Origin: Escherichia phage PO103-1
Strand: one strand, 5' to 3'
Sequence record: NC_079175.1
DNA: 53,040 nt
Shown here piece by piece: positions 37-53,040 of this stretch. The notes under the pieces were generated by a model. The model was not told the origin of the DNA. It made no database searches and saw only the letters and a list, made by a program, of their open reading frames with translations. The translations under genes and the position numbers were made by a program. Within the stretch, counting starts at the first letter, position 1. Each line of letters opens with the position of its first letter.

Positions 37-186
37 AATAAAATTATAATATTGCCACAATTCGAGTCTCGTAGCTTTGTTACGAATTCTAGTCTCATTA
101 ATTCTGTAGCAATATTTAAATTAAAAAAAAAATTATAAAAAAAATTATTTCATAGTCGGTCTTCCATTCGAACAAATTTTGGCGAG

Positions 187-241
187 ATACAGCTGACCGA
201 CCATGAACGAATTACTGTCCAGGTACAGTTGACCGACCATG
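187..241. repeat. Two 17-19-bp direct repeats TACAG(C/T)TGACCGACCATG
   Basis: Copies at 187-205 and 223-241, near the left end of the genome as presented. Confidence 0.5.
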
Positions 242-283
242 TGCCATTTGGTTTTAACTTTACGCATTCCTAATATTACTCTT

Positions 284-300
284 AATATTGTAGCAATATT
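284..300. promoter_or_regulatory. Palindromic operator-like site AATATTG-tag-CAATATT
   Basis: Perfect 7-bp inverted repeat with 3-bp spacer. Confidence 0.4.
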
Positions 301-389
301 GGGAATAAATAAATATTTAATTTACTTGTTTTATTCTAGCTCAAAGAGAAACGACGCTAACGCATCGAATCTCTTCTCGCATATAATCG

Positions 390-1490
390 TTACAGCTCAA
401 ATCCGCCCAGGGCATTGGTGTCCACTTCGGAGTCAATCTGCCCGACAAGGTACGAACTAATCTCCGTTTCCTGTGGAGCAACTTGTACAGCATCCGAATT
501 CAACCATGCGTTAATCCAAGGAATCGGATTAGTAGCACCTTTGAATGGAGCATCCAATCCAACTGCTTGCATACGAATATTCGTGATATATTCCACATAT
601 CCGCACAGAATTTGCTTGTTTAAGCCAATCATTGAGCCATCTTTGAACAAATAATCAGCCCAATCTTTCTCTTGTTGGGCCACATTTTCGAACATTTCTT
701 GGCACTCTTGACGGCATTCTTTAGCAATTTCGGCCATTTCTGGGTCATCAACACCTCTTGCAAGAAGGTTCAGCATGTGTTGAGTTCCGGTCAAATGGAG
801 TGCTTCATCACGAGCAATTAAGCGAATAATCTTGGCATTTCCTTCCATTAACTTACGTTCAGCGAAGGCAAATGAGCAAGCAAAGCTGACATAAAAGCGA
901 ATTGCTTCCAGCGCATTAATGGACATGAGGCATAAATACAGCTTCTTCTTAAGCTCACGAAGAGAAACTTTATCTTCATGCAGATGCCACATGGAAGTCA
1001 GATGTTGAAGCTCGTCATAATATTGGGAGATGCCAATTGCACGCATTTTAATATGCTCATTCTCTACAATTTCATCGAAAATGACGCTAGGGTCTGTCAC
1101 GATATTACGAATAATGTGTGTGTAAGAACGGGAGTGAATTGTCTCTGAGAATGACCAAGTTTCAATCCAAGTTTCAAGCTCAGGAATGCTCACAATTGGC
1201 AGCAAAACTGTGGTTGGTCCACGCCCCTGAATGGAATCGAGCAGGATTTGGTATCGTAAATTGCTGGTGAAGATGTGCTTCTCGCATTCAGGCAGACCAG
1301 CATAATCAATTCGGTCCTGGCTAACATCAACCTCCTCAGGTCGCCAAAAGAAAGATAACTGCTTCTCGATTAACTTCTCGAAGATGCTGTACTTCTGTTG
1401 GTCATATCGGGCAACGTTAACGTTCTGACCAAAGAACATTGGCTCTAGTAGTTGGTTATTCTTGGTTTGTGAAAAGGTAGTGTAAGCCAT
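390..1490 (-). CDS. nrdB: Ribonucleotide reductase class Ia small (beta) subunit, host-like
   Basis: 366-aa ORF; N-terminus [28 protein letters not shown] and RDEALH regions match E. coli NrdB as I recall it almost residue for residue. Confidence 0.9.
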
Positions 1491-24607: not shown

Positions 24608-26643
24608 GCGGAGTAGTTGGCACTTGGGCCTGAGAATTCGATTGCAACCATATCTGAAACGTTATCGACACAATCGTCGTGTCCAGTACCACTACCCAAA
24701 GAAGTGAATCCAAGTATTTCACGTCTAACGTGGTCGATGTGTTCATGACCAGCAGGGAAGAATATTCTCTTTTGCGAGAAATATGGGATTGCGTTAAGGA
24801 ATCGAGTTACCTTGTCGTTACCATTAATGCCATCACGAGGCAATGGTAAAACTCGGACACTCCCATCTCTGATAAATTGTTGGTTCAAGAATTGTCCGGC
24901 AGACTTGTCTTCCATGTACAGTGCACGAGGAATACAACCTACACATTTCAAGTCCAACTTGTTGCATTTGTTCCAGAAGTCGATGATAGCAGTCTTGAGT
25001 TCTGGAGTTTCAAACTTACCGAGCATAATATCTAAGCAATAAACATCACGCTCTTTAGTCACGCCCCAATGCTTAAGGACCGAATAATCAGAATAAGATT
25101 TGGCAGTTGATGCCGTATCCGCTGTAATAAAACTTCTGACTATGCGACTTCTGTCGAAAACGTCTGGTTCATACTCTTGCCACCAATCTTCTTTGATAAG
25201 GCCGTGGCCTTGTGCAGATGGGTCGCCAGCATACTGTGAATTGTATGTGTATGGGTTAGACTCTTTCATTGCCTCCAGAGATTCTAAGCTCTTACGTGAA
25301 GGCCATAATGCAGACTTCTCTTCCTTCCTGTTCAAATTATACAGAATGGGAATAGCATGAGTGTAGTTCTGCTTCTTGATTAACTTATCATACCATTCAG
25401 CACTCCCAACACCTTTCTCAATAATCGCTGGGATATTGAGATAATGGTATTTGTCAGAAGAGCCACCACGGAGTATGTAACCAACTAAATCCTGGTCGTG
25501 AACTCGCTGCATGATGATAACCATTGGTGTACGGGCACACTTAATTTGGTTTCCGTACGAATCAGTTATGCAACCATCGTTGGCAAGACGGGACATAAAG
25601 GTGTTATCAAATCGGTCGTTGATTTCTGCTCGAACTGTGTCAGAGTAGGCATCTTTCGGTTTGATAACGTCATCCACCACGAAACAACCGGAGTATTTTG
25701 CAACAAGAAGTCCAGCACCTTTACCAGTTAGCTTACCACCAGTAGGTACTGCGTGCATAACTCCAGCTTTGGTTGTACCCCAGCGTTCAAGAGAACGTTT
25801 GTTAGGGTCGATTCTCACCTTCGGGAATATGCGTTGGAACAGTGGGTCCATCATTACAGCACGGATGTAACCACTCGACTCAAGAACAACGTCTTCTGCA
25901 TACGAGGTGATAATATTATGGCTTGATTCATTGTGGCAAAATGAATACAAGGGCAATGCAATACTCATAAGCTGAGTCTTAGAGTGTCGTGGAGGAATGG
26001 TCACTATTAAGCGGTCAATCTCACCATCAACAACCTTTTGACCAACACTGAATATCACATCGTGAAAGTCTTGTGCTTGAAATGGAAATCCCATCTGAAT
26101 ATGGAACTGCCATTTACCAAAGGCTTCGAAACTTTTCATCAAGATTTTGCGAACACGTTCTGCAACCTTGGCAGGGATTACAGTTGGGTCCACGTTATGT
26201 GGGTCATGCAGAATCTTGTCTACAAGTTCGTCGGTGTTATCGTATTCCGAGTTTGGCTCTTCCAAAGTAGAACCCACAACACGGTCAGTAACACCTGCTT
26301 GAATACCTTTCTTCAACTCGTCTGCATAGGCAGTTGAGTCTTTCTTGTCGCCAGAGCGAAGACGCTCAAGTTGTGCTCTGAAAACGGAACGCAATACAGC
26401 ATCGTTTTCAAGACCCTGGCCTTCTAACTCTGCTTGAATTTGTTCTTCATAGCTGTCAACTATTGCAGTATTTTCTGAAATATATCGACGGAGCAATGGC
26501 AAAGATAGAATACAGAATCTTTCTCTTGAGACTTTTAATACGTCACCGTAGTGCTTGGCAAGATACGAGGCTACTGTATCATTAAACTCCGGTCCGAGGT
26601 CATCAGTCTTTGACATTGATTCGTTCTCTTTGTTTTTAATCAC
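24598..26643 (-). CDS. Terminase large subunit
   Basis: 681 aa; ATPase-like segments (PPRHSKTQ, CFVVDDV) and C-terminal nuclease-like motifs (SFITADTA, GTGHDDCVDNVSD). Confidence 0.8.
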   Translation of the reverse strand: MIKNKENESMSKTDDLGPEFNDTVASYLAKHYGDVLKVSRERFCILSLPLLRRYISENTAIVDSYEEQIQAELEGQGLENDAVLRSVFRAQLERLRSGDKKDSTAYADELKKGIQAGVTDRVVGSTLEEPNSEYDNTDELVDKILHDPHNVDPTVIPAKVAERVRKILMKSFEAFGKWQFHIQMGFPFQAQDFHDVIFSVGQKVVDGEIDRLIVTIPPRHSKTQLMSIALPLYSFCHNESSHNIITSYAEDVVLESSGYIRAVMMDPLFQRIFPKVRIDPNKRSLERWGTTKAGVMHAVPTGGKLTGKGAGLLVAKYSGCFVVDDVIKPKDAYSDTVRAEINDRFDNTFMSRLANDGCITDSYGNQIKCARTPMVIIMQRVHDQDLVGYILRGGSSDKYHYLNIPAIIEKGVGSAEWYDKLIKKQNYTHAIPILYNLNRKEEKSALWPSRKSLESLEAMKESNPYTYNSQYAGDPSAQGHGLIKEDWWQEYEPDVFDRSRIVRSFITADTASTAKSYSDYSVLKHWGVTKERDVYCLDIMLGKFETPELKTAIIDFWNKCNKLDLKCVGCIPRALYMEDKSAGQFLNQQFIRDGSVRVLPLPRDGINGNDKVTRFLNAIPYFSQKRIFFPAGHEHIDHVRREILGFTSLGSGTGHDDCVDNVSDMVAIEFSGPSANYSAWM

Positions 26644-26821
26644 AATCCACTAATGGCTGAGTTTGCACGGGATTGATGCGAATGATGCTGCCTAAACCAG
26701 AATCGGCCTTTAAATACAGGCGGTTTAGTGGCATGTATGAATCACAGATAGGACATTGCTGCGTTATGAAATCATCTTCTGCAATTTCATAATGGCAGTT
26801 AGGACATTGTATTGTGCGCAT
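26636..26821 (-). CDS. Zinc-ribbon protein
   Basis: 61 aa with CPNC...CPIC; ATG with GGAG about 8 nt upstream. Confidence 0.45.
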   Translation of the reverse strand: MRTIQCPNCHYEIAEDDFITQQCPICDSYMPLNRLYLKADSGLGSIIRINPVQTQPLVDCD

Positions 26822-26841
26822 AAGCGACTCCGAATAAGATA

Positions 26842-49264: not shown

Positions 49265-49553
49265 TTTATTCTCCTAAGTTAAAAGAACTCCCTACAGAAC
49301 GATTGTGGAGGTCTTGTCTTACCTCAATCCACCTTAAAGTTGTAGGGAGTTATATAGTATTCCTGTGTGTGCCGCCATCAGGGACTTCCTAGTCTGGTGG
49401 GCGCGTTGCAATCCAGCAATATACCACACGTTTTTCACAGGCTATATATGTGACACACAAAGTGTCGAAAAACTACAATGATTAGCTTGGAGACATAATC
49501 TCTCTAAAATCTGTCACACAATTTCAGCAGAATTTACAGAGATTTGGTCTTAT

Positions 49554-49574
49554 TCACATGCAACTAATGATAAA
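49554..49574 (-). promoter_or_regulatory. Early-region conserved motif copy
   Basis: tCATTAGTTGCATGTG at the lower edge of the non-coding repeat region. Confidence 0.3.
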
Positions 49575-49586
49575 TGAACATGCTTA

Positions 49587-49602
49587 ATTGCAACTAATTC
49601 AT
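49587..49602 (-). promoter_or_regulatory. Early-region conserved motif copy (degenerate)
   Basis: gAATTAGTTGCAat, tandem with the preceding copy. Confidence 0.25.
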
Positions 49603-49762
49603 CTGCCAAATAGACGAATTTTGTCACAATTAAACATGCACCATTAATTACAGGTTTACTCCCATACTTAACGTATTTGGCACATTAAGATTGGAGCAAG
49701 CAGGTACGGAAAACCGACCATGTACAGCATAATAAAACAAATTAAATAAAGGGTTTTATCCC

Positions 49763-49779
49763 AATATTGTCACAATATT
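49763..49779. promoter_or_regulatory. Palindromic operator-like site AATATTG-tca-CAATATT
   Basis: Perfect 7-bp inverted repeat with 3-bp spacer, followed by TACATGC. Confidence 0.4.
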
Positions 49780-50010
49780 ACATGCGATGATAAAGCCTTC
49801 GCTTGGCTGGAAGCCAGTATTCATGCGGGTTGCAAGAATATTGGGTTAATGCTGATACAGCTATTACATGCGAAATTGGCACAAATACTGTTACAAAATT
49901 AACATGCCAGATTGGTAGACGATTGTATCTTCGAGGTGATTAGTCCTCTAACAATTCTGCCACATTCCAACATGCCAATTTGTAGCAATATTTACATGCC
50001 ATACTGCGAC

Positions 50011-50027
50011 AATATTGTCACAATATT
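50011..50027. promoter_or_regulatory. Palindromic operator-like site AATATTG-tca-CAATATT
   Basis: Identical palindrome; partial copies near 48-62, 49617-49637 and 50192-50208. Confidence 0.4.
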
Positions 50028-50407
50028 TGTTGCTCAAAATCGGGGCGGGCTACGGGATTAGTTTCGCAGCTTTGCTCCGACTCTTCTCTTCTTTCGAATT
50101 CTGATTGAAAGAAAGAAGCATGTCCAAAAGTTCCAATATTATCAAAGTTATCTCCCGGCTTGTGGGTGGGCCTTTATAATAGGAGATGGAGCAATATTGT
50201 CGCAATTGAACATGCTATAGGTGAAGTACAAGTTTCGAATAGATATTCCTACTCTAAGTCATGGTTGCTGGAACTGTAGGTGGCCTACCTAGGGAGTTCA
50301 ATGATTGCCACATCATTACAACACTGTAACTCAAAGCTGACATGCTGAATGTTTCTAGAATGATTCAACATGACATGCGGAATATTTCTCCGTATTCTTT
50401 TACTTCA

Positions 50408-50427
50408 CATCCAACTAATGTTACAAC
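50408..50427 (-). promoter_or_regulatory. Early-region conserved motif copy
   Basis: gttgtaACATTAGTTGGATG between the RNAP-adjacent small gene and the non-coding region. Confidence 0.35.
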
Positions 50428-50495
50428 TGGCTACAATATTGAAGTCAGCTCTAAGATTAATTGGAACAAGAAAAGGGAGCCGAAGCTCCCAAGTA

Positions 50496-50732
50496 TCAGA
50501 ACGGTATCTCTGTATCAAAGAATCCAGAATTGTGCAAATATGCGTGCAATAATACATGCGATTCTTGCTTATATTCTGCTAACAATTCTAAGAAGTCTTT
50601 AGTCTCCTCCACTGTAGGACGAGATAAATTGTTCATGTCACAGGTGTGATGAGGATTGAAACAGTTTTCGATTTGATTGATTTGCATGGTATTCATTGTA
50701 GTCTCCAAGTAGTTGTGGTCATCCTTGACCAA
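50496..50732 (-). CDS. Hypothetical small early protein with C-terminal ...DTEIPF tail
   Basis: 78-aa ORF immediately downstream of the RNA polymerase gene. Confidence 0.4.
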   Translation of the reverse strand: MVKDDHNYLETTMNTMQINQIENCFNPHHTCDMNNLSRPTVEETKDFLELLAEYKQESHVLLHAYLHNSGFFDTEIPF

Positions 50733-50738
50733 TTAATA

Positions 50739-52679
50739 TTATTGACAGAAGTAGTAAGCGTGTTCGCTCATCAGAAGCTCTTCGGTTACGATGTTCTCAT
50801 GATACATCTGAATGCCACCAAGTTGCTTAGACAGATTCTCGAATTGATTGTTGGTTACAAAGATTTCAACATATGCTGCACGAATAACTTCCATCATACG
50901 TGGAGCATCTGCCAAACAGCAACGGAAACAATCATGGATTGAAGTGAAGCCACGAAGACCAGCTTCTTTAGCTTTAACTGCAACAGTACGAGCAACAAGT
51001 GCATCAATACCTTGAATGTAGTTAACAACGAAAGTACGCTTGAATTCTTCTTTAGTTGGATTGGATTCACGAATGGTCCAAGGCTTATTCTCCTGAATCT
51101 GACCAAAGATAACACGAGTTTGGCTGTCAACACGAATGCTGAATGCCTCACAGATTTCACGAGATGGGAAGCAAGGCTTCATTACAACCTGACCATCAGT
51201 GTGACGGTATGTGATGTACTCTTTACCAAGTTCAACACAACGGTTGTATGCAGCATCAGCAGCTTTCTCAATGAACATGTTAATCTTAGCACCCAATGCG
51301 TTATGGATTGCTTCCACACACAGTTCAGCAAATGCCTCAGCTTTCTCCATAGGAATCTGGAGAGCTTCTGTCATGTAGCTAATGAAGTCAGATGAACCAG
51401 TTAATGCAGCTTTACCACCACCGTATTGAATGGCCATGTAAGGAGTTTTGATAAACTTACGACCAGCTTTCGGATTCAAGAATTCATCCATGATTTCAGC
51501 AGATGGTTTCATTGAAGAACGGTCGAGTAACTTCAACAGCTCACGAAGACTCAACTGGTATGGGTCAGATGCTTTAGTCTCAGAATCAACCAGACCTGTT
51601 GCACGAGCCATTTCCATGTTACCAGCAATGAATGCCAGATATTGAGTACCAGAACATTTAGCATCTAATCCAAAGCCTACACGAGAATCGCATTCACCTG
51701 TAGTCTCAAACTTGAACCAATCCAGAGCCAGACGAACATAAGTGAATGGCTTAGAAGGACGTTCAGCTTTAGGCATGTTCATCATGCGAGCAAGTGAACC
51801 AGCTGGATTCTGAGCAACATAAGTTAAACGCTTAGCACTGCACCATTCACCACCAGAAATATCTTCCAGCTCTGCCATGAACATGTTGTATGCAATGGTA
51901 GTAGAACCATCTTCGTTAAACTTCTTAACGATGTTCTCAACATTGTGAGAATACAAGCAACGAGCAAAGTCAGAGGATTGTGGGTTAGGACCAGCACATG
52001 CTACATGATACAGGCGACCACGGTTATCAGCAAAGTAGTCAGAATACAGTGTGTCCTGATTCATCATTGCTACAGCATTGTTCCAAACATGGAGTTCAGT
52101 CTGGATTGCTTCTGGCATCTGCAAGCCACCGTAGGTACGTTGTTCAAGCATGGACTGGATGATGCGAACCATCTCAGTCTCCACATGGTACTCAGTATCT
52201 TGCAGGAATTCGATTGCAGCTTTCAGAGTCTTGGATGGCTTAACTTTGCCACCTTTAACGAAAGGCTTGCGACGAGATTCAGATGTAACACGCTCAGTGA
52301 ATGGCACTGCGGTGTCTTTGGTTGTAACCAGTTCAACCCATGTGTCAGTCTGTTGGAATGACTTGTCTTCGTTCATGGTTATGAAGCCAAAGTGCTTAGC
52401 CAGACCAATGAGGTTGATAGCTGGGTCAACATAGTGCATTGCTTTCAAATCGTTGTTGTAGCGGTTGGCATCAGCAATAGAAGCAGAAGCCAGCTCAACC
52501 ATCGCAATGGCAGGAACAACGTCGTCACGTGTGAAAGACGTCATCATCTTGAATATGGCTAAGGCAGCAATAGCACAAGTCTGAGGCTGCATATAGTTCT
52601 GCTTCTCTTTGGCACGGTATACCAGAGCAGTGATAGCAGGAACAACAGATTTGATAGTTTGAGTGGTGATAGTAGTCAT
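50739..52679 (-). CDS. Single-subunit DNA-dependent RNA polymerase (T7-like, compact)
   Basis: 646 aa; GLDAKCSGTQYLAFIAG, RKFIKTPYMAIQYGGG and SIHDCF parallel T7 RNAP DGSCSGIQHFSAML, RSVTKRSVMTLAYGS and HDSFGT; GGAG 8 nt upstream of ATG. Confidence 0.85.
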   Translation of the reverse strand: MTTITTQTIKSVVPAITALVYRAKEKQNYMQPQTCAIAALAIFKMMTSFTRDDVVPAIAMVELASASIADANRYNNDLKAMHYVDPAINLIGLAKHFGFITMNEDKSFQQTDTWVELVTTKDTAVPFTERVTSESRRKPFVKGGKVKPSKTLKAAIEFLQDTEYHVETEMVRIIQSMLEQRTYGGLQMPEAIQTELHVWNNAVAMMNQDTLYSDYFADNRGRLYHVACAGPNPQSSDFARCLYSHNVENIVKKFNEDGSTTIAYNMFMAELEDISGGEWCSAKRLTYVAQNPAGSLARMMNMPKAERPSKPFTYVRLALDWFKFETTGECDSRVGFGLDAKCSGTQYLAFIAGNMEMARATGLVDSETKASDPYQLSLRELLKLLDRSSMKPSAEIMDEFLNPKAGRKFIKTPYMAIQYGGGKAALTGSSDFISYMTEALQIPMEKAEAFAELCVEAIHNALGAKINMFIEKAADAAYNRCVELGKEYITYRHTDGQVVMKPCFPSREICEAFSIRVDSQTRVIFGQIQENKPWTIRESNPTKEEFKRTFVVNYIQGIDALVARTVAVKAKEAGLRGFTSIHDCFRCCLADAPRMMEVIRAAYVEIFVTNNQFENLSKQLGGIQMYHENIVTEELLMSEHAYYFCQ

Positions 52680-52749
52680 TTGTAAGTCTCCAAGATTGTG
52701 TATGATTTAACTGAAACGGATTATAATAGCGTAGCCATTACACAATTCA

Positions 52750-52770
52750 CTTCCAACTAATATCACAAAC
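52750..52770 (-). promoter_or_regulatory. Early-region conserved motif copy upstream of the RNA polymerase gene
   Basis: gtgatATTAGTTGGAAG about 75 nt upstream of the RNAP ATG; a TATAAT hexamer lies about 30 nt further downstream. Confidence 0.35.
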
Positions 52771-52910
52771 CTGTGCCATTGTTACAACAGCACGGAGACT
52801 TTGACCTTGACCCATAAGCGAAGCGCCTAACTTGGTGTTGTTTGAAAGCCGATAGGCTGTAGGAAAAAGTTGGAGTAGGGACCGTATTTAAGTCCGATAG
52901 GACGTTGGGC

Positions 52911-52974
52911 TTCCCCCCCTCCTCGGAGATAAAAATTTTAAAATAATAATGTCACAACTTCCCCTCCTCGCTGG
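52911..52974. repeat. Two C-rich direct repeats (T)TCCCCTCCTCG
   Basis: Copies at 52911-52926 and 52958-52974, near the right end. Confidence 0.4.
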
Positions 52975-52975
52975 C

Positions 52976-53040
<65 letters not shown>

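Follow-up and report, generated by a model that had tools for sequence, protein, structure and literature searches.

Introduction

In bacteriophage T7, the replication promoters phiOL and phiOR reportedly lie beside the terminal repeat, together with the short repeat arrays SRL and SRR. T7 origins comprise a T7 promoter, which is needed in every origin, and adjacent AT-rich DNA, with phiOR serving as a secondary origin (PMC8373140), and T7 primase recognises the sequence 5'-(G/T)2GTC-3', for example TGGTC (PMC12839067, PMC2910064). Outside T7, in which the repeat is 160 bp, the recognition and duplication of kilobase-long direct terminal repeats (DTRs) are poorly understood. The ICTV, the international body for virus taxonomy, describes the family Chaseviridae as having linear, non-permuted genomes with terminal repeats of ~3 kb (PMC12842549), and its 2022 profile states that promoters have not yet been identified in the family. 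Here we analyse the 53,040-nt sequence record of Escherichia phage PO103-1 (NC_079175.1; the whole stretch is referred to as the window) and, in particular, the repeats near its two ends: a pair of 18-mers and a palindrome at the left end, and two C-rich boxes at the right end. We propose, with a probability of roughly 0.4, that paired promoter-like or origin-like initiation modules flank the DTR and that these modules, taken together with the virion ends and a terminus element, are the joint best explanation of the repeats.

Terminases of other phages recognise a cut site with adjacent repeated or protein-binding elements, as in lambda cos (cosN and cosB) and the pac sites of SPP1 and P22; SPP1 pacL and pacR and lambda cosB are repeat sites bound by small terminase. 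In Twort-like phages, 12-bp repeats are located at the edges of the non-redundant genome (PMC7596081).

Results

Predicted virion ends of PO103-1

The first 3 kb and the last 2.5 kb of the window match phages of Carltongylesvirus (Chaseviridae) at 95-97% identity, among them Shigella phage 2KOFFS, Ecp_YSF, BSBP01, ST32 and flopper. The two window ends are contiguous in the records of these relatives, and no long internal repeat was found in the window, in which the DTR is present as a single copy. These observations, combined with the ICTV description of the family, indicate that the window is a complete Carltongylesvirus genome, with the DTR collapsed to one copy, opened in the spacer between nrdB and the RNA polymerase gene.

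To place the virion ends, we used homology with the known or predicted ends of six relatives from five genera: JL1, Y2 and PM1, the records of which contain both repeat copies (2,995 bp in a 55,571-bp record for JL1, 2,608 bp for Y2, and 2,665 bp for PM1), and Mangalitsa, 4HA13 and Myduc, the repeats of which are annotated by PhageTerm (3,234 bp, 3,120 bp and 3,202 bp, respectively). The left ends of all six relatives fall within 7 nt of each other in one conserved block, inside CCTATCGGACTTAAATACGGTCCC, in the context GAGGAGGGGAAGCCCAACGTCCTATCG, then GAC, then TTAAATACGGTCCCTAC. By this homology, the virion ends of PO103-1 are positioned as follows:

52891-52897, minus strand: inferred left physical end (DTR start), within CCTATCG, GAC, TTAAATACGGTCCC; corresponds to the ends of JL1, Mangalitsa, 4HA13, Myduc, Y2 and PM1.
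50079-50083, minus strand: inferred right physical end (DTR end), at the junction of GAAGAGAAGAGTC and GGAGC.

The sequence TCGG is common to both cuts. The window equivalent of the repeat is ~2.81 kb and contains the RNA polymerase gene, one small open reading frame (ORF), and half of a 1.2-kb gene-free region (49265-50495) that spans the right repeat boundary.

By these positions, the window ends are not the physical ends: the window ends are contiguous in relatives, and the virion ends map elsewhere. The suggestion of a pac or cos site, made in the initial annotation of the window, fails for a lambda-type cos site and for a headful pac site, because the ends of the family are fixed, terminally redundant and non-permuted (PMC12842549). 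Specifically, a lambda-type cos site is ruled out by the 2.6-3.2-kb direct terminal repeats of the relatives and by the terminal redundancy of the family in the ICTV description, and a headful pac site of the P22, SPP1 or T1 type is ruled out by the non-permuted genomes of the family and by the agreement of the ends of six relatives within 7 nt. The PO103-1 cut resembles lambda cos and the SPP1 and P22 pac sites in having adjacent repeated elements. It differs from them in that Chaseviridae have fixed ends and long direct repeats, have no cohesive ends or headful series, and need two cuts ~2.8 kb apart (PMC12842549).

A conserved module on each outer flank of the terminal repeat

All of the flagged repeats lie inside a ~640-bp gene-free spacer that extends from the last gene, nrdB, to the left DTR edge. 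The 18-mer TACAG(C/T)TGACCGACCATG, which reads CATGGTCGGTCA(A/G)CTGTA on the coding strand, has exactly two occurrences, at 188-205 and 224-241, with starts 36 bp apart, and the similarity between the copies extends to 23 nt (184-206 and 220-242). The chance expectation is 0.04 matches with three mismatches allowed, and two or more matches were obtained in 0 of 100 shuffles. The 36-bp period escapes Tandem Repeats Finder, since conservation is limited to half of each unit. The palindrome AATATTG-N3-CAATATT belongs to a family that, with up to two mismatches allowed, has 8 members in the window versus 0.56 expected, a number reached in 0 of 100 shuffles. Both elements had been flagged in the initial annotation, and both are real: the palindrome is located exactly where it had been placed, and the 18-mers, for which starts of 187 and 223 had been given, begin one base later. 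The 18-mers lie between the two 40-mers with the highest A/T content in the genome, and an inverted partial copy of the 18-mer core abuts the more extreme of them. The elements of the left-hand locus, and of its counterpart beyond the other edge of the DTR, are:

188-205, minus strand: 18-mer copy A1, sense CATGGTCGGTCAGCTGTA.
224-241, minus strand: 18-mer copy A2, the better conserved copy, sense CATGGTCGGTCAACTGTA(CCTGG).
151-165, plus strand: inverted partial copy of the 18-mer core (CATAGTCGGTCTTCC), which can pair with either direct copy and is also present in PM1.
284-300: perfect 17-bp palindrome AATATTGTAGCAATATT, 40 nt from A2; its plus-strand flank, GGGAATAAA...TTGTTTTATT, shows homology with the downstream module's leader.
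100-116: palindrome-family member AATTCTGTAGCAATATT, two mismatches.
111-150: 40 bp consisting only of A/T, exceeding every other genome 40-mer in A/T content; candidate unwinding, bending or UP element.
295-334: second most AT-rich 40-mer in the genome, 87.5% A/T.
61-100, minus strand: two GAGACT(N)(N)AATT short repeats, present in 2-4 copies in relatives and replaced by different repeats in other genera.
49697-49785, minus strand: second module copy, sense GCATGT, AATATTGTGACAATATT, a GGGA-led AT-rich stretch of 39 nt, and ACATGGTCGGTTTTCCGTACCTG; 356 bp beyond the right cut.

The repeats are conserved within and between genera. The stretch 145-310 is present in 44 of 44 Carltongylesvirus-level records of a phage collection, at 83-96% identity, and the motifs recur in four further genera. 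In particular, the 18-mer motif is located upstream of the repeat in Y2 (TTTGTCGGTCGACTGTTCC), PM1, 4HA13 (two copies), Myduc, Faunus and one IMG/VR relative, and in Y2, PM1, 4HA13 and Myduc it lies at -180 to -290 relative to the DTR. A third related copy in the window, sister motif B (ACATGGTCGGTTTTCCGTACCTG, 49701-49723), has counterparts at +350 to +392 in Y2, PM1, 4HA13 and Myduc, in which the layout of the second module is the same. Alignment of 22 copies yields the consensus WTGGTCGG-N4-CYGTACC, with a near-invariant core, TCGGT. A scan of IMG/VR with a 16-mer motif returned 8 matches, 5 of them on contigs of 52-53 kb, of which 3 were already known as RNA-polymerase relatives. An exact search of IMG/VR with the junction sequence gave no match. 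Together, the shuffle statistics, the conservation in 44 records, and the recurrence in four further genera place the flagged repeats well beyond chance.

The left-hand and right-hand loci share a defined architecture. At both loci, the palindrome and the motif are 39-41 nt apart, as they are in Faunus, the relative L015 and phiEcoM-GJ1 (GJ1). Similarity between the two modules exceeds that of shuffles for the motif (0 of 500 shuffles) and for the AT-rich leader (1 of 500 shuffles), the leader of the upstream locus being located on the opposite side of the palindrome from that of the downstream locus. The stretch 49729-49768 ranks 8 among genome 40-mers by A/T content. Within-genome matching of 16-mers between the upstream and downstream flanks gave similarity at the null level, except for the palindromes. 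In the distant Aeromonas phage ZPAH14, a collinear module of ~70 bp is present on both sides of the repeat (-511 to -430 and +192 to +260), with a different palindrome and a GGTCGAC-type motif. We infer that the 18-mers, the inverted partial copy, the palindrome at 284-300 and the AT-rich tracts constitute a module separate from the cut site.

Further short repeats occur near both boundaries. Between the A/T tract and the cut, each genus has its own: GAGACT in PO103-1, GATTCG in Y2, ACGGCTC in PM1, and AAGTCGTAAG in Myduc. At the other boundary, 12 of the 20 sense-strand GCATGT hexamers of the genome cluster at 49561-50559; most of the clustered hexamers are followed by AATATTG-N3-CAATATT, and the array is conserved in Y2, PM1, 4HA13 and Myduc.

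A probable terminus element adjacent to the left cut

The two C-rich copies reported near the right end of the window are genuine: CCCCCTCCTCG is located at 52915-52925, and TCCCCTCCTCG is located at 52960-52970. Two matches were found versus 0.15 expected, a number reached by 1 of 100 shuffles. On the coding strand, C-rich copy 1 is a G-box, GAGGAGGGG. It is situated at a distance of 19-29 bp from the left cut, on the outer side, and a T-run and a half-palindrome (AATTGTGGCAATATT) come before it. The elements adjoining the two cuts are:

52898-52925, minus strand: conserved block on the outer side of the left cut, sense GAGGAGGGGGGGAAGCCCAACGTCCTA, with C-rich copy 1 inside it; probably a terminase recognition element.
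52926-52970, minus strand: 45-bp polymorphic tandem duplication with C-rich copy 2, comprising palindrome-like TTGTGACATTATT, a T-rich stretch and a G-box.
50011-50056: element just outside the right cut, with a G/C-rich box at 50042-50056 and the palindrome AATATTGTCACAATATT at 50011-50027.

In an alignment of 11 relatives, the terminus block and the first ~50 bp inside the repeat are the best-conserved non-coding sequence. The block recurs in Y2, PM1, 4HA13 and Myduc, giving five genera in all, and in ZPAH14 a T-run and a G-rich box, GAGTGGGGTGGGGGAGGGA, occur just before the 3,373-bp repeat of the record ends. The ZPAH14 record is marked circular, though it carries this 3,373-bp terminal duplication.

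The proximal C-rich box adjoins the virion start of the relatives and is conserved across five genera, which makes a packaging or terminus role plausible; it is probably part of a terminase recognition and cleavage element. The left terminus element would comprise, in order, the half-palindrome, the T-run, the G-box, ~20-30 bp, and the cut, and terminase would recognise and cut concatemeric DNA there. Of the elements that the initial annotation had grouped as packaging or terminus candidates, the C-rich box, at 19-29 bp from the left cut, is thus a plausible one. The 18-mers and the palindrome, at ~240-390 bp, are part of the separate module, of which there is a second copy past the opposite edge of the DTR; the one lead towards a direct packaging role for them, a weak one, is the GTCGG core shared with the right cut site. 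C-rich copy 2 forms part of a 45-bp insertion (52926-52970) bounded by a 13-bp direct repeat (CTTCCCCTCCTCG). This duplication is spanned by about a dozen of the 44 matching records and is absent from flopper, ST32, GJ1 and JL1, from which we infer that copy 2 is a dispensable duplication of the terminus unit.

The modules resemble T7 origins in layout

With low confidence, we favour initiation modules as the explanation of the paired elements because their layout resembles that of T7 origins, in which a promoter is combined with an AT-rich region, and because PO103-1 has genes for a T7-like RNA polymerase and for a primase-helicase of the gp4 type. The latter enzyme matches T7 gp4 structures (5ikn, 6n7i and 1q57) at E = 1e-31, has Toprim and DnaB_C domains, and contains an N-terminal Cys/His-rich stretch that may be a zinc ribbon; a family A DNA polymerase is also encoded. 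An AT-rich region is present beside the candidate promoter (111-150, 100% A/T, and 295-334, 87.5% A/T, ranking 1 and 2 in the genome). The motif core contains TGGTC, which the gp4-like enzyme may recognise if it has the specificity of T7 primase. The palindrome core at the downstream locus, AATATTGTGACAATATT followed by GGGA, resembles the SP6 promoter core, GTGACA-TAT-G.

In the proposed mechanism, each module would consist of a promoter-like palindrome, followed after ~40 nt by a motif core that carries the T7-type primase site TGGTC. The two modules, which have the same orientation and lie one on each outer DTR flank, would not themselves be the cut site. They would initiate towards the right, crossing the DTR edges or moving away from them, and would help to replicate or duplicate the repeat. 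Specifically, TGGTCGGT, ~40 nt past the promoter-like palindrome, would be on the strand displaced by rightward transcription, with an unwinding-prone tract alongside, and TGGTCGGTC, once single-stranded, would serve as the primase template.

The region surrounding the PO103-1 repeat shares several features with the T7 concatemer junction. In both, a single-subunit RNA polymerase of the T7 type is encoded together with a gp4-like primase-helicase; the terminal repeats are direct, with directional modules and AT-rich DNA on both outer repeat flanks; and the DNA just downstream of the polymerase gene is free of genes and rich in repeats, the T7 primary origin being located just downstream of gene 1. 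The short, genus-specific repeats beside the cut in Chaseviridae recall the T7 short repeat arrays. The differences are also substantial: the PO103-1 repeat is ~2.8 kb and has the polymerase gene inside, whereas that of T7 is 160 bp and contains no gene; PO103-1 has a myovirus virion; the motif sequences are unrelated to those of T7; and the palindrome is a putative promoter, at a putative start of replication.

Several observations weigh against the joint explanation by ends, terminus element and modules. The near-invariant core of the 18-mer is TCGGT rather than GTC, and GTC is lost in the downstream copy of GJ1. For the upstream palindrome, it is the opposite strand that gives the better fit to the promoter-like consensus. 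The motif annotated as "putative phage promoters" in GJ1, ACATTAGTTGGATGTGAA, is absent from the spacer and differs from the palindrome. The mirror-image relation of the boundary elements exceeds that of shuffles in no more than 2-3 of 5 genera (clear in 4HA13 and PM1, marginal in the window, and failing in Y2 and Myduc), and mirror symmetry of the boundary flanks is therefore kept only as a lead. Finally, PYps23T, which was shown experimentally to have terminal repeats and a non-permuted genome, has a terminal repeat of 2,339 bp by ligation-PCR (PMC8762354), which maps to window positions 50412-52753, unlike the repeats of the six other Chaseviridae. The PYps23T repeat begins and ends directly after ATTAGTTGGA, in two copies of the GJ1-type promoter-like motif; the discordance may reflect a PCR or recombination artefact, or may be a real difference.

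A more ambitious version of the proposal, which we regard as quite unlikely, is that a two-part cis-acting system makes the kilobase repeats of Chaseviridae, with terminase boundary elements as one part and origin-like modules as the other. The first part would be a boundary element outside each cut, composed of a palindrome, an A/T run and a G/C box, with the cut at TCGG. The second part would be a directional module 240-390 bp outside each boundary, composed of a palindrome, ~40 bp, the GGTCGG motif and an unwinding tract. The origin-like module would prime strand-displacement synthesis that duplicates the 2.8-kb repeat together with the RNA polymerase gene.

Alternative explanations of the modules

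The same elements could be read as binding sites for proteins. Operators for a phage or host DNA-binding protein would place early promoters under its control, including a sigma70-type promoter directed into the right-hand copy of the RNA polymerase gene, with the AT tract as a UP or bending element. The perfect 17-bp dyad of the palindrome, the confinement of at least eight family members to gene-free DNA near both DTR edges, and the form of the 18-mer itself, an imperfect inverted repeat (GGTCGG/CCGTACC), all suit such a role. So does the record of GJ1, in which a host sigma70 promoter is annotated over the boundary-proximal half-palindrome, the pure A/T tract at 111-150 falling at about -30 to -70 of this promoter. 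We nevertheless consider operators a live but less likely alternative: no DNA-binding protein was identified among ten early ORFs, which have no Pfam or PHROG function; a scan of 1-500 on both strands called no sigma70-like promoter, versus 1.6 expected in shuffles; and operators would leave unexplained the duplication of the module on both outer DTR flanks in all genera. The 18-mers themselves are ruled out as a sigma70 promoter, no -35 and -10 hexamers with 16-18 nt spacing having been found, and comparison by eye with consensus sequences showed unfit spacing or half-sites for sigma54, LexA, FadR, IHF and DnaA. The protein bound could also be terminase or its small subunit, with the 18-mers as accessory, pac-like sites that allow recognition of the boundary from a distance by wrapping or looping. 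The motifs flank both cuts in every genus examined, they are arranged in tandem as direct repeats, which is also seen at small-terminase sites in other phages, and the core GTCGG(A/T) is located exactly at the right cut, with 4 of its 9 sense-strand genome copies at a cut or in the motifs; moreover, phages of the Twort-like group, which have long repeats, carry repeats of 12 bp at the non-redundant genome's edges (PMC7596081). The resemblance to the Twort-like phages consists in short conserved repeats that bracket a kilobase-scale terminal repeat in a virulent myovirus (PMC7596081), and copy A2 contains GTACCTGG, probably by coincidence; the PO103-1 copies differ in being direct rather than inverted, 18-23 bp long, 240-390 bp outside the cuts, and accompanied by a palindrome and AT-rich tracts. 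This distance from the cuts is large, the copies on the two sides are direct rather than mirrored, the core common to the 18-mers and the right cut is just 5-6 nt and was spotted after the fact, and a much better conserved sequence is present right at the cut; accessory terminase sites, too, are a live alternative, though an unlikely one.

Readings in which the motif acts as RNA, as a gene, or not at all are less probable. It is improbable that the motif acts as an RNA hairpin, or as a class-II-like signal (CTGT) at which the phage RNA polymerase pauses or terminates ~40 nt past the start site. The sense strand, and only this strand, can fold as GGUCGG-N4-CYG-U-ACC with G-U pairs, 84.7% of cells being paired versus 36-47% with the register slid; a stem of 12-13 bp is possible with the inverted copy; and the (A/G)CTGT(A/T) of the type A copies resembles the T7 class-II signal, ATCTGTT. 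However, pairing is kept no better than in shuffles (84.7% versus 83.8%, with 154 of 500 shuffles as high), and the covariation score is reached by 95 of 500 shuffles, so that covariation lends a hairpin no support; the 18-mer is an imperfect inverted repeat. Folding z-scores are only -1.3 to -1.9, Rfam yielded no match with E up to 1 in 1-600 or 49300-53040, the downstream motif copy is without CTGT, and exact ATCTGTT was absent around both boundaries. It is barely credible that the repeats are an internal duplication (MVGQLYL twice) within a small coding gene. A 40-codon ORF (268 to 146, minus strand) does span both 18-mer copies in frame, and a coding sequence (CDS) is annotated over the stretch in flopper, Mangalitsa, PYps phages, 2KOFFS and others, several relatives having a "hypothetical protein" of 40-66 amino acids there. 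However, the Shine-Dalgarno-like AGGA directly adjoins the ATG; the motif ATG is not conserved; a 1-nt indel within the genus shifts the unchanged motif to another frame in GJ1, L011, PYps23T and JL1; and in Faunus and L015 the motif is in yet another frame or in an ORF of 7 codons. Because the frame differs within and between genera and leaves the DNA motif untouched, we reject the small ORF and regard the motif as non-coding; the "hypothetical protein" that many records place over the 18-mers is thus probably a spurious annotation. It is also very improbable that the motifs are functionless, leftover duplications in a fast-evolving spacer. The spacer does show indels and changes in repeat number, but the motif core and its positions are kept across genera with RNA polymerases that are 66-76% identical, in a surrounding spacer that is barely alignable.

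Beside the possible role of terminase, we note a small ORF at ~26640-26830 (minus strand), immediately upstream of the large terminase gene, that encodes two CxxC pairs (MRTIQCPNCHYEI...QQCPICDSYM...). This ORF is a candidate DNA-recognition partner of terminase.

Promoter annotations in relatives

The GJ1 record (EF460875) contains two kinds of promoter annotation with counterparts in the window. The "putative host sigma70 promoter" corresponds to window positions 43-85, where the -35 hexamer is poor in the window and the scan called no promoter. The "putative phage promoters 1-9" correspond to the ACATTAGTTGGATGTGAA family, of which the window has at least 10 copies. This family is a directional 20-nt motif, (C)TGAAACATTAGTTGGA(T/A)GTGAA, located mostly upstream of genes. 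The corresponding features of the window are:

43-62, minus strand: half-palindrome AATTGTGGCAATATT with TATAAT (sense strand), facing the DTR and the gene for RNA polymerase; also kept in Y2, PM1 and 4HA13.
52763, 50421, 49570, 46174, 45785, 41743, 41603, 41415, 39449, 31764 and 12175, minus strand: 20-nt promoter-like motif.

The 18-mer, the palindrome family and the terminus block are unannotated in the records of GJ1, flopper, Mangalitsa, JL1, FXie-2024a, PYps23T, Y2, PM1, 4HA13, Myduc and ZPAH14; the flopper record marks only two nearby features, each a "repeat_region". The literature searched contained no description of the 18-mer family, the terminus block or the paired modules, the last of which are likewise unannotated in these records. 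The long repeat and the GJ1 "promoters" are already known.

Other features of the record

The remaining features of the spacer and of the record ends are:

390-1490, minus strand: nrdB, the last gene.
352-367, minus strand: terminator-like hairpin with a T-run, directly after nrdB.
1-34: poly-A run of 34 A, artificial or grossly expanded.
52977-53040: poly-A run of 64 A, an artefact.

The initial annotation had noted that the poly-A runs look artificial, and comparison with relatives bears this out. At the same point, flopper reads CCTCGCCGCCTC-AAAAAA-TAAAAATTAATATTGCC, and FXie-2024a, JL1, ST32 and GJ1 carry 5-7 A where the window totals 98 A. Since the relatives have only A5-A7 here, the 98 A are, on this comparison, artificial, or at most the gross lengthening of an A/T run that naturally has 5-7 bases, and the record was opened inside this run.

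No tRNA genes were detected in the whole window, unlike in phiEcoM-GJ1, which carries tRNA-Arg. The RNA polymerase CDS (50739-52679) encodes 646 amino acids in PO103-1 versus 704 amino acids as annotated in Mangalitsa and JL1, and the sequence 5' of the shared RNA polymerase start differs between PO103-1 and these two phages.

Discussion

The analysis has practical consequences for the family. The poly-A ends of the PO103-1 record should be trimmed, and Chaseviridae assemblies would be better opened at positions of the 52891-52897 type than at nrdB or the RNA polymerase gene. It also provides candidates that are defined at the level of bases and are family-wide: the left-cut block, the TCGG at both cuts, and the paired modules on the outer repeat flanks. 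If the two-part cis-acting system considered above is real, the 18-mers would be the first defined signal coupling replication and packaging for a myovirus with a long DTR.

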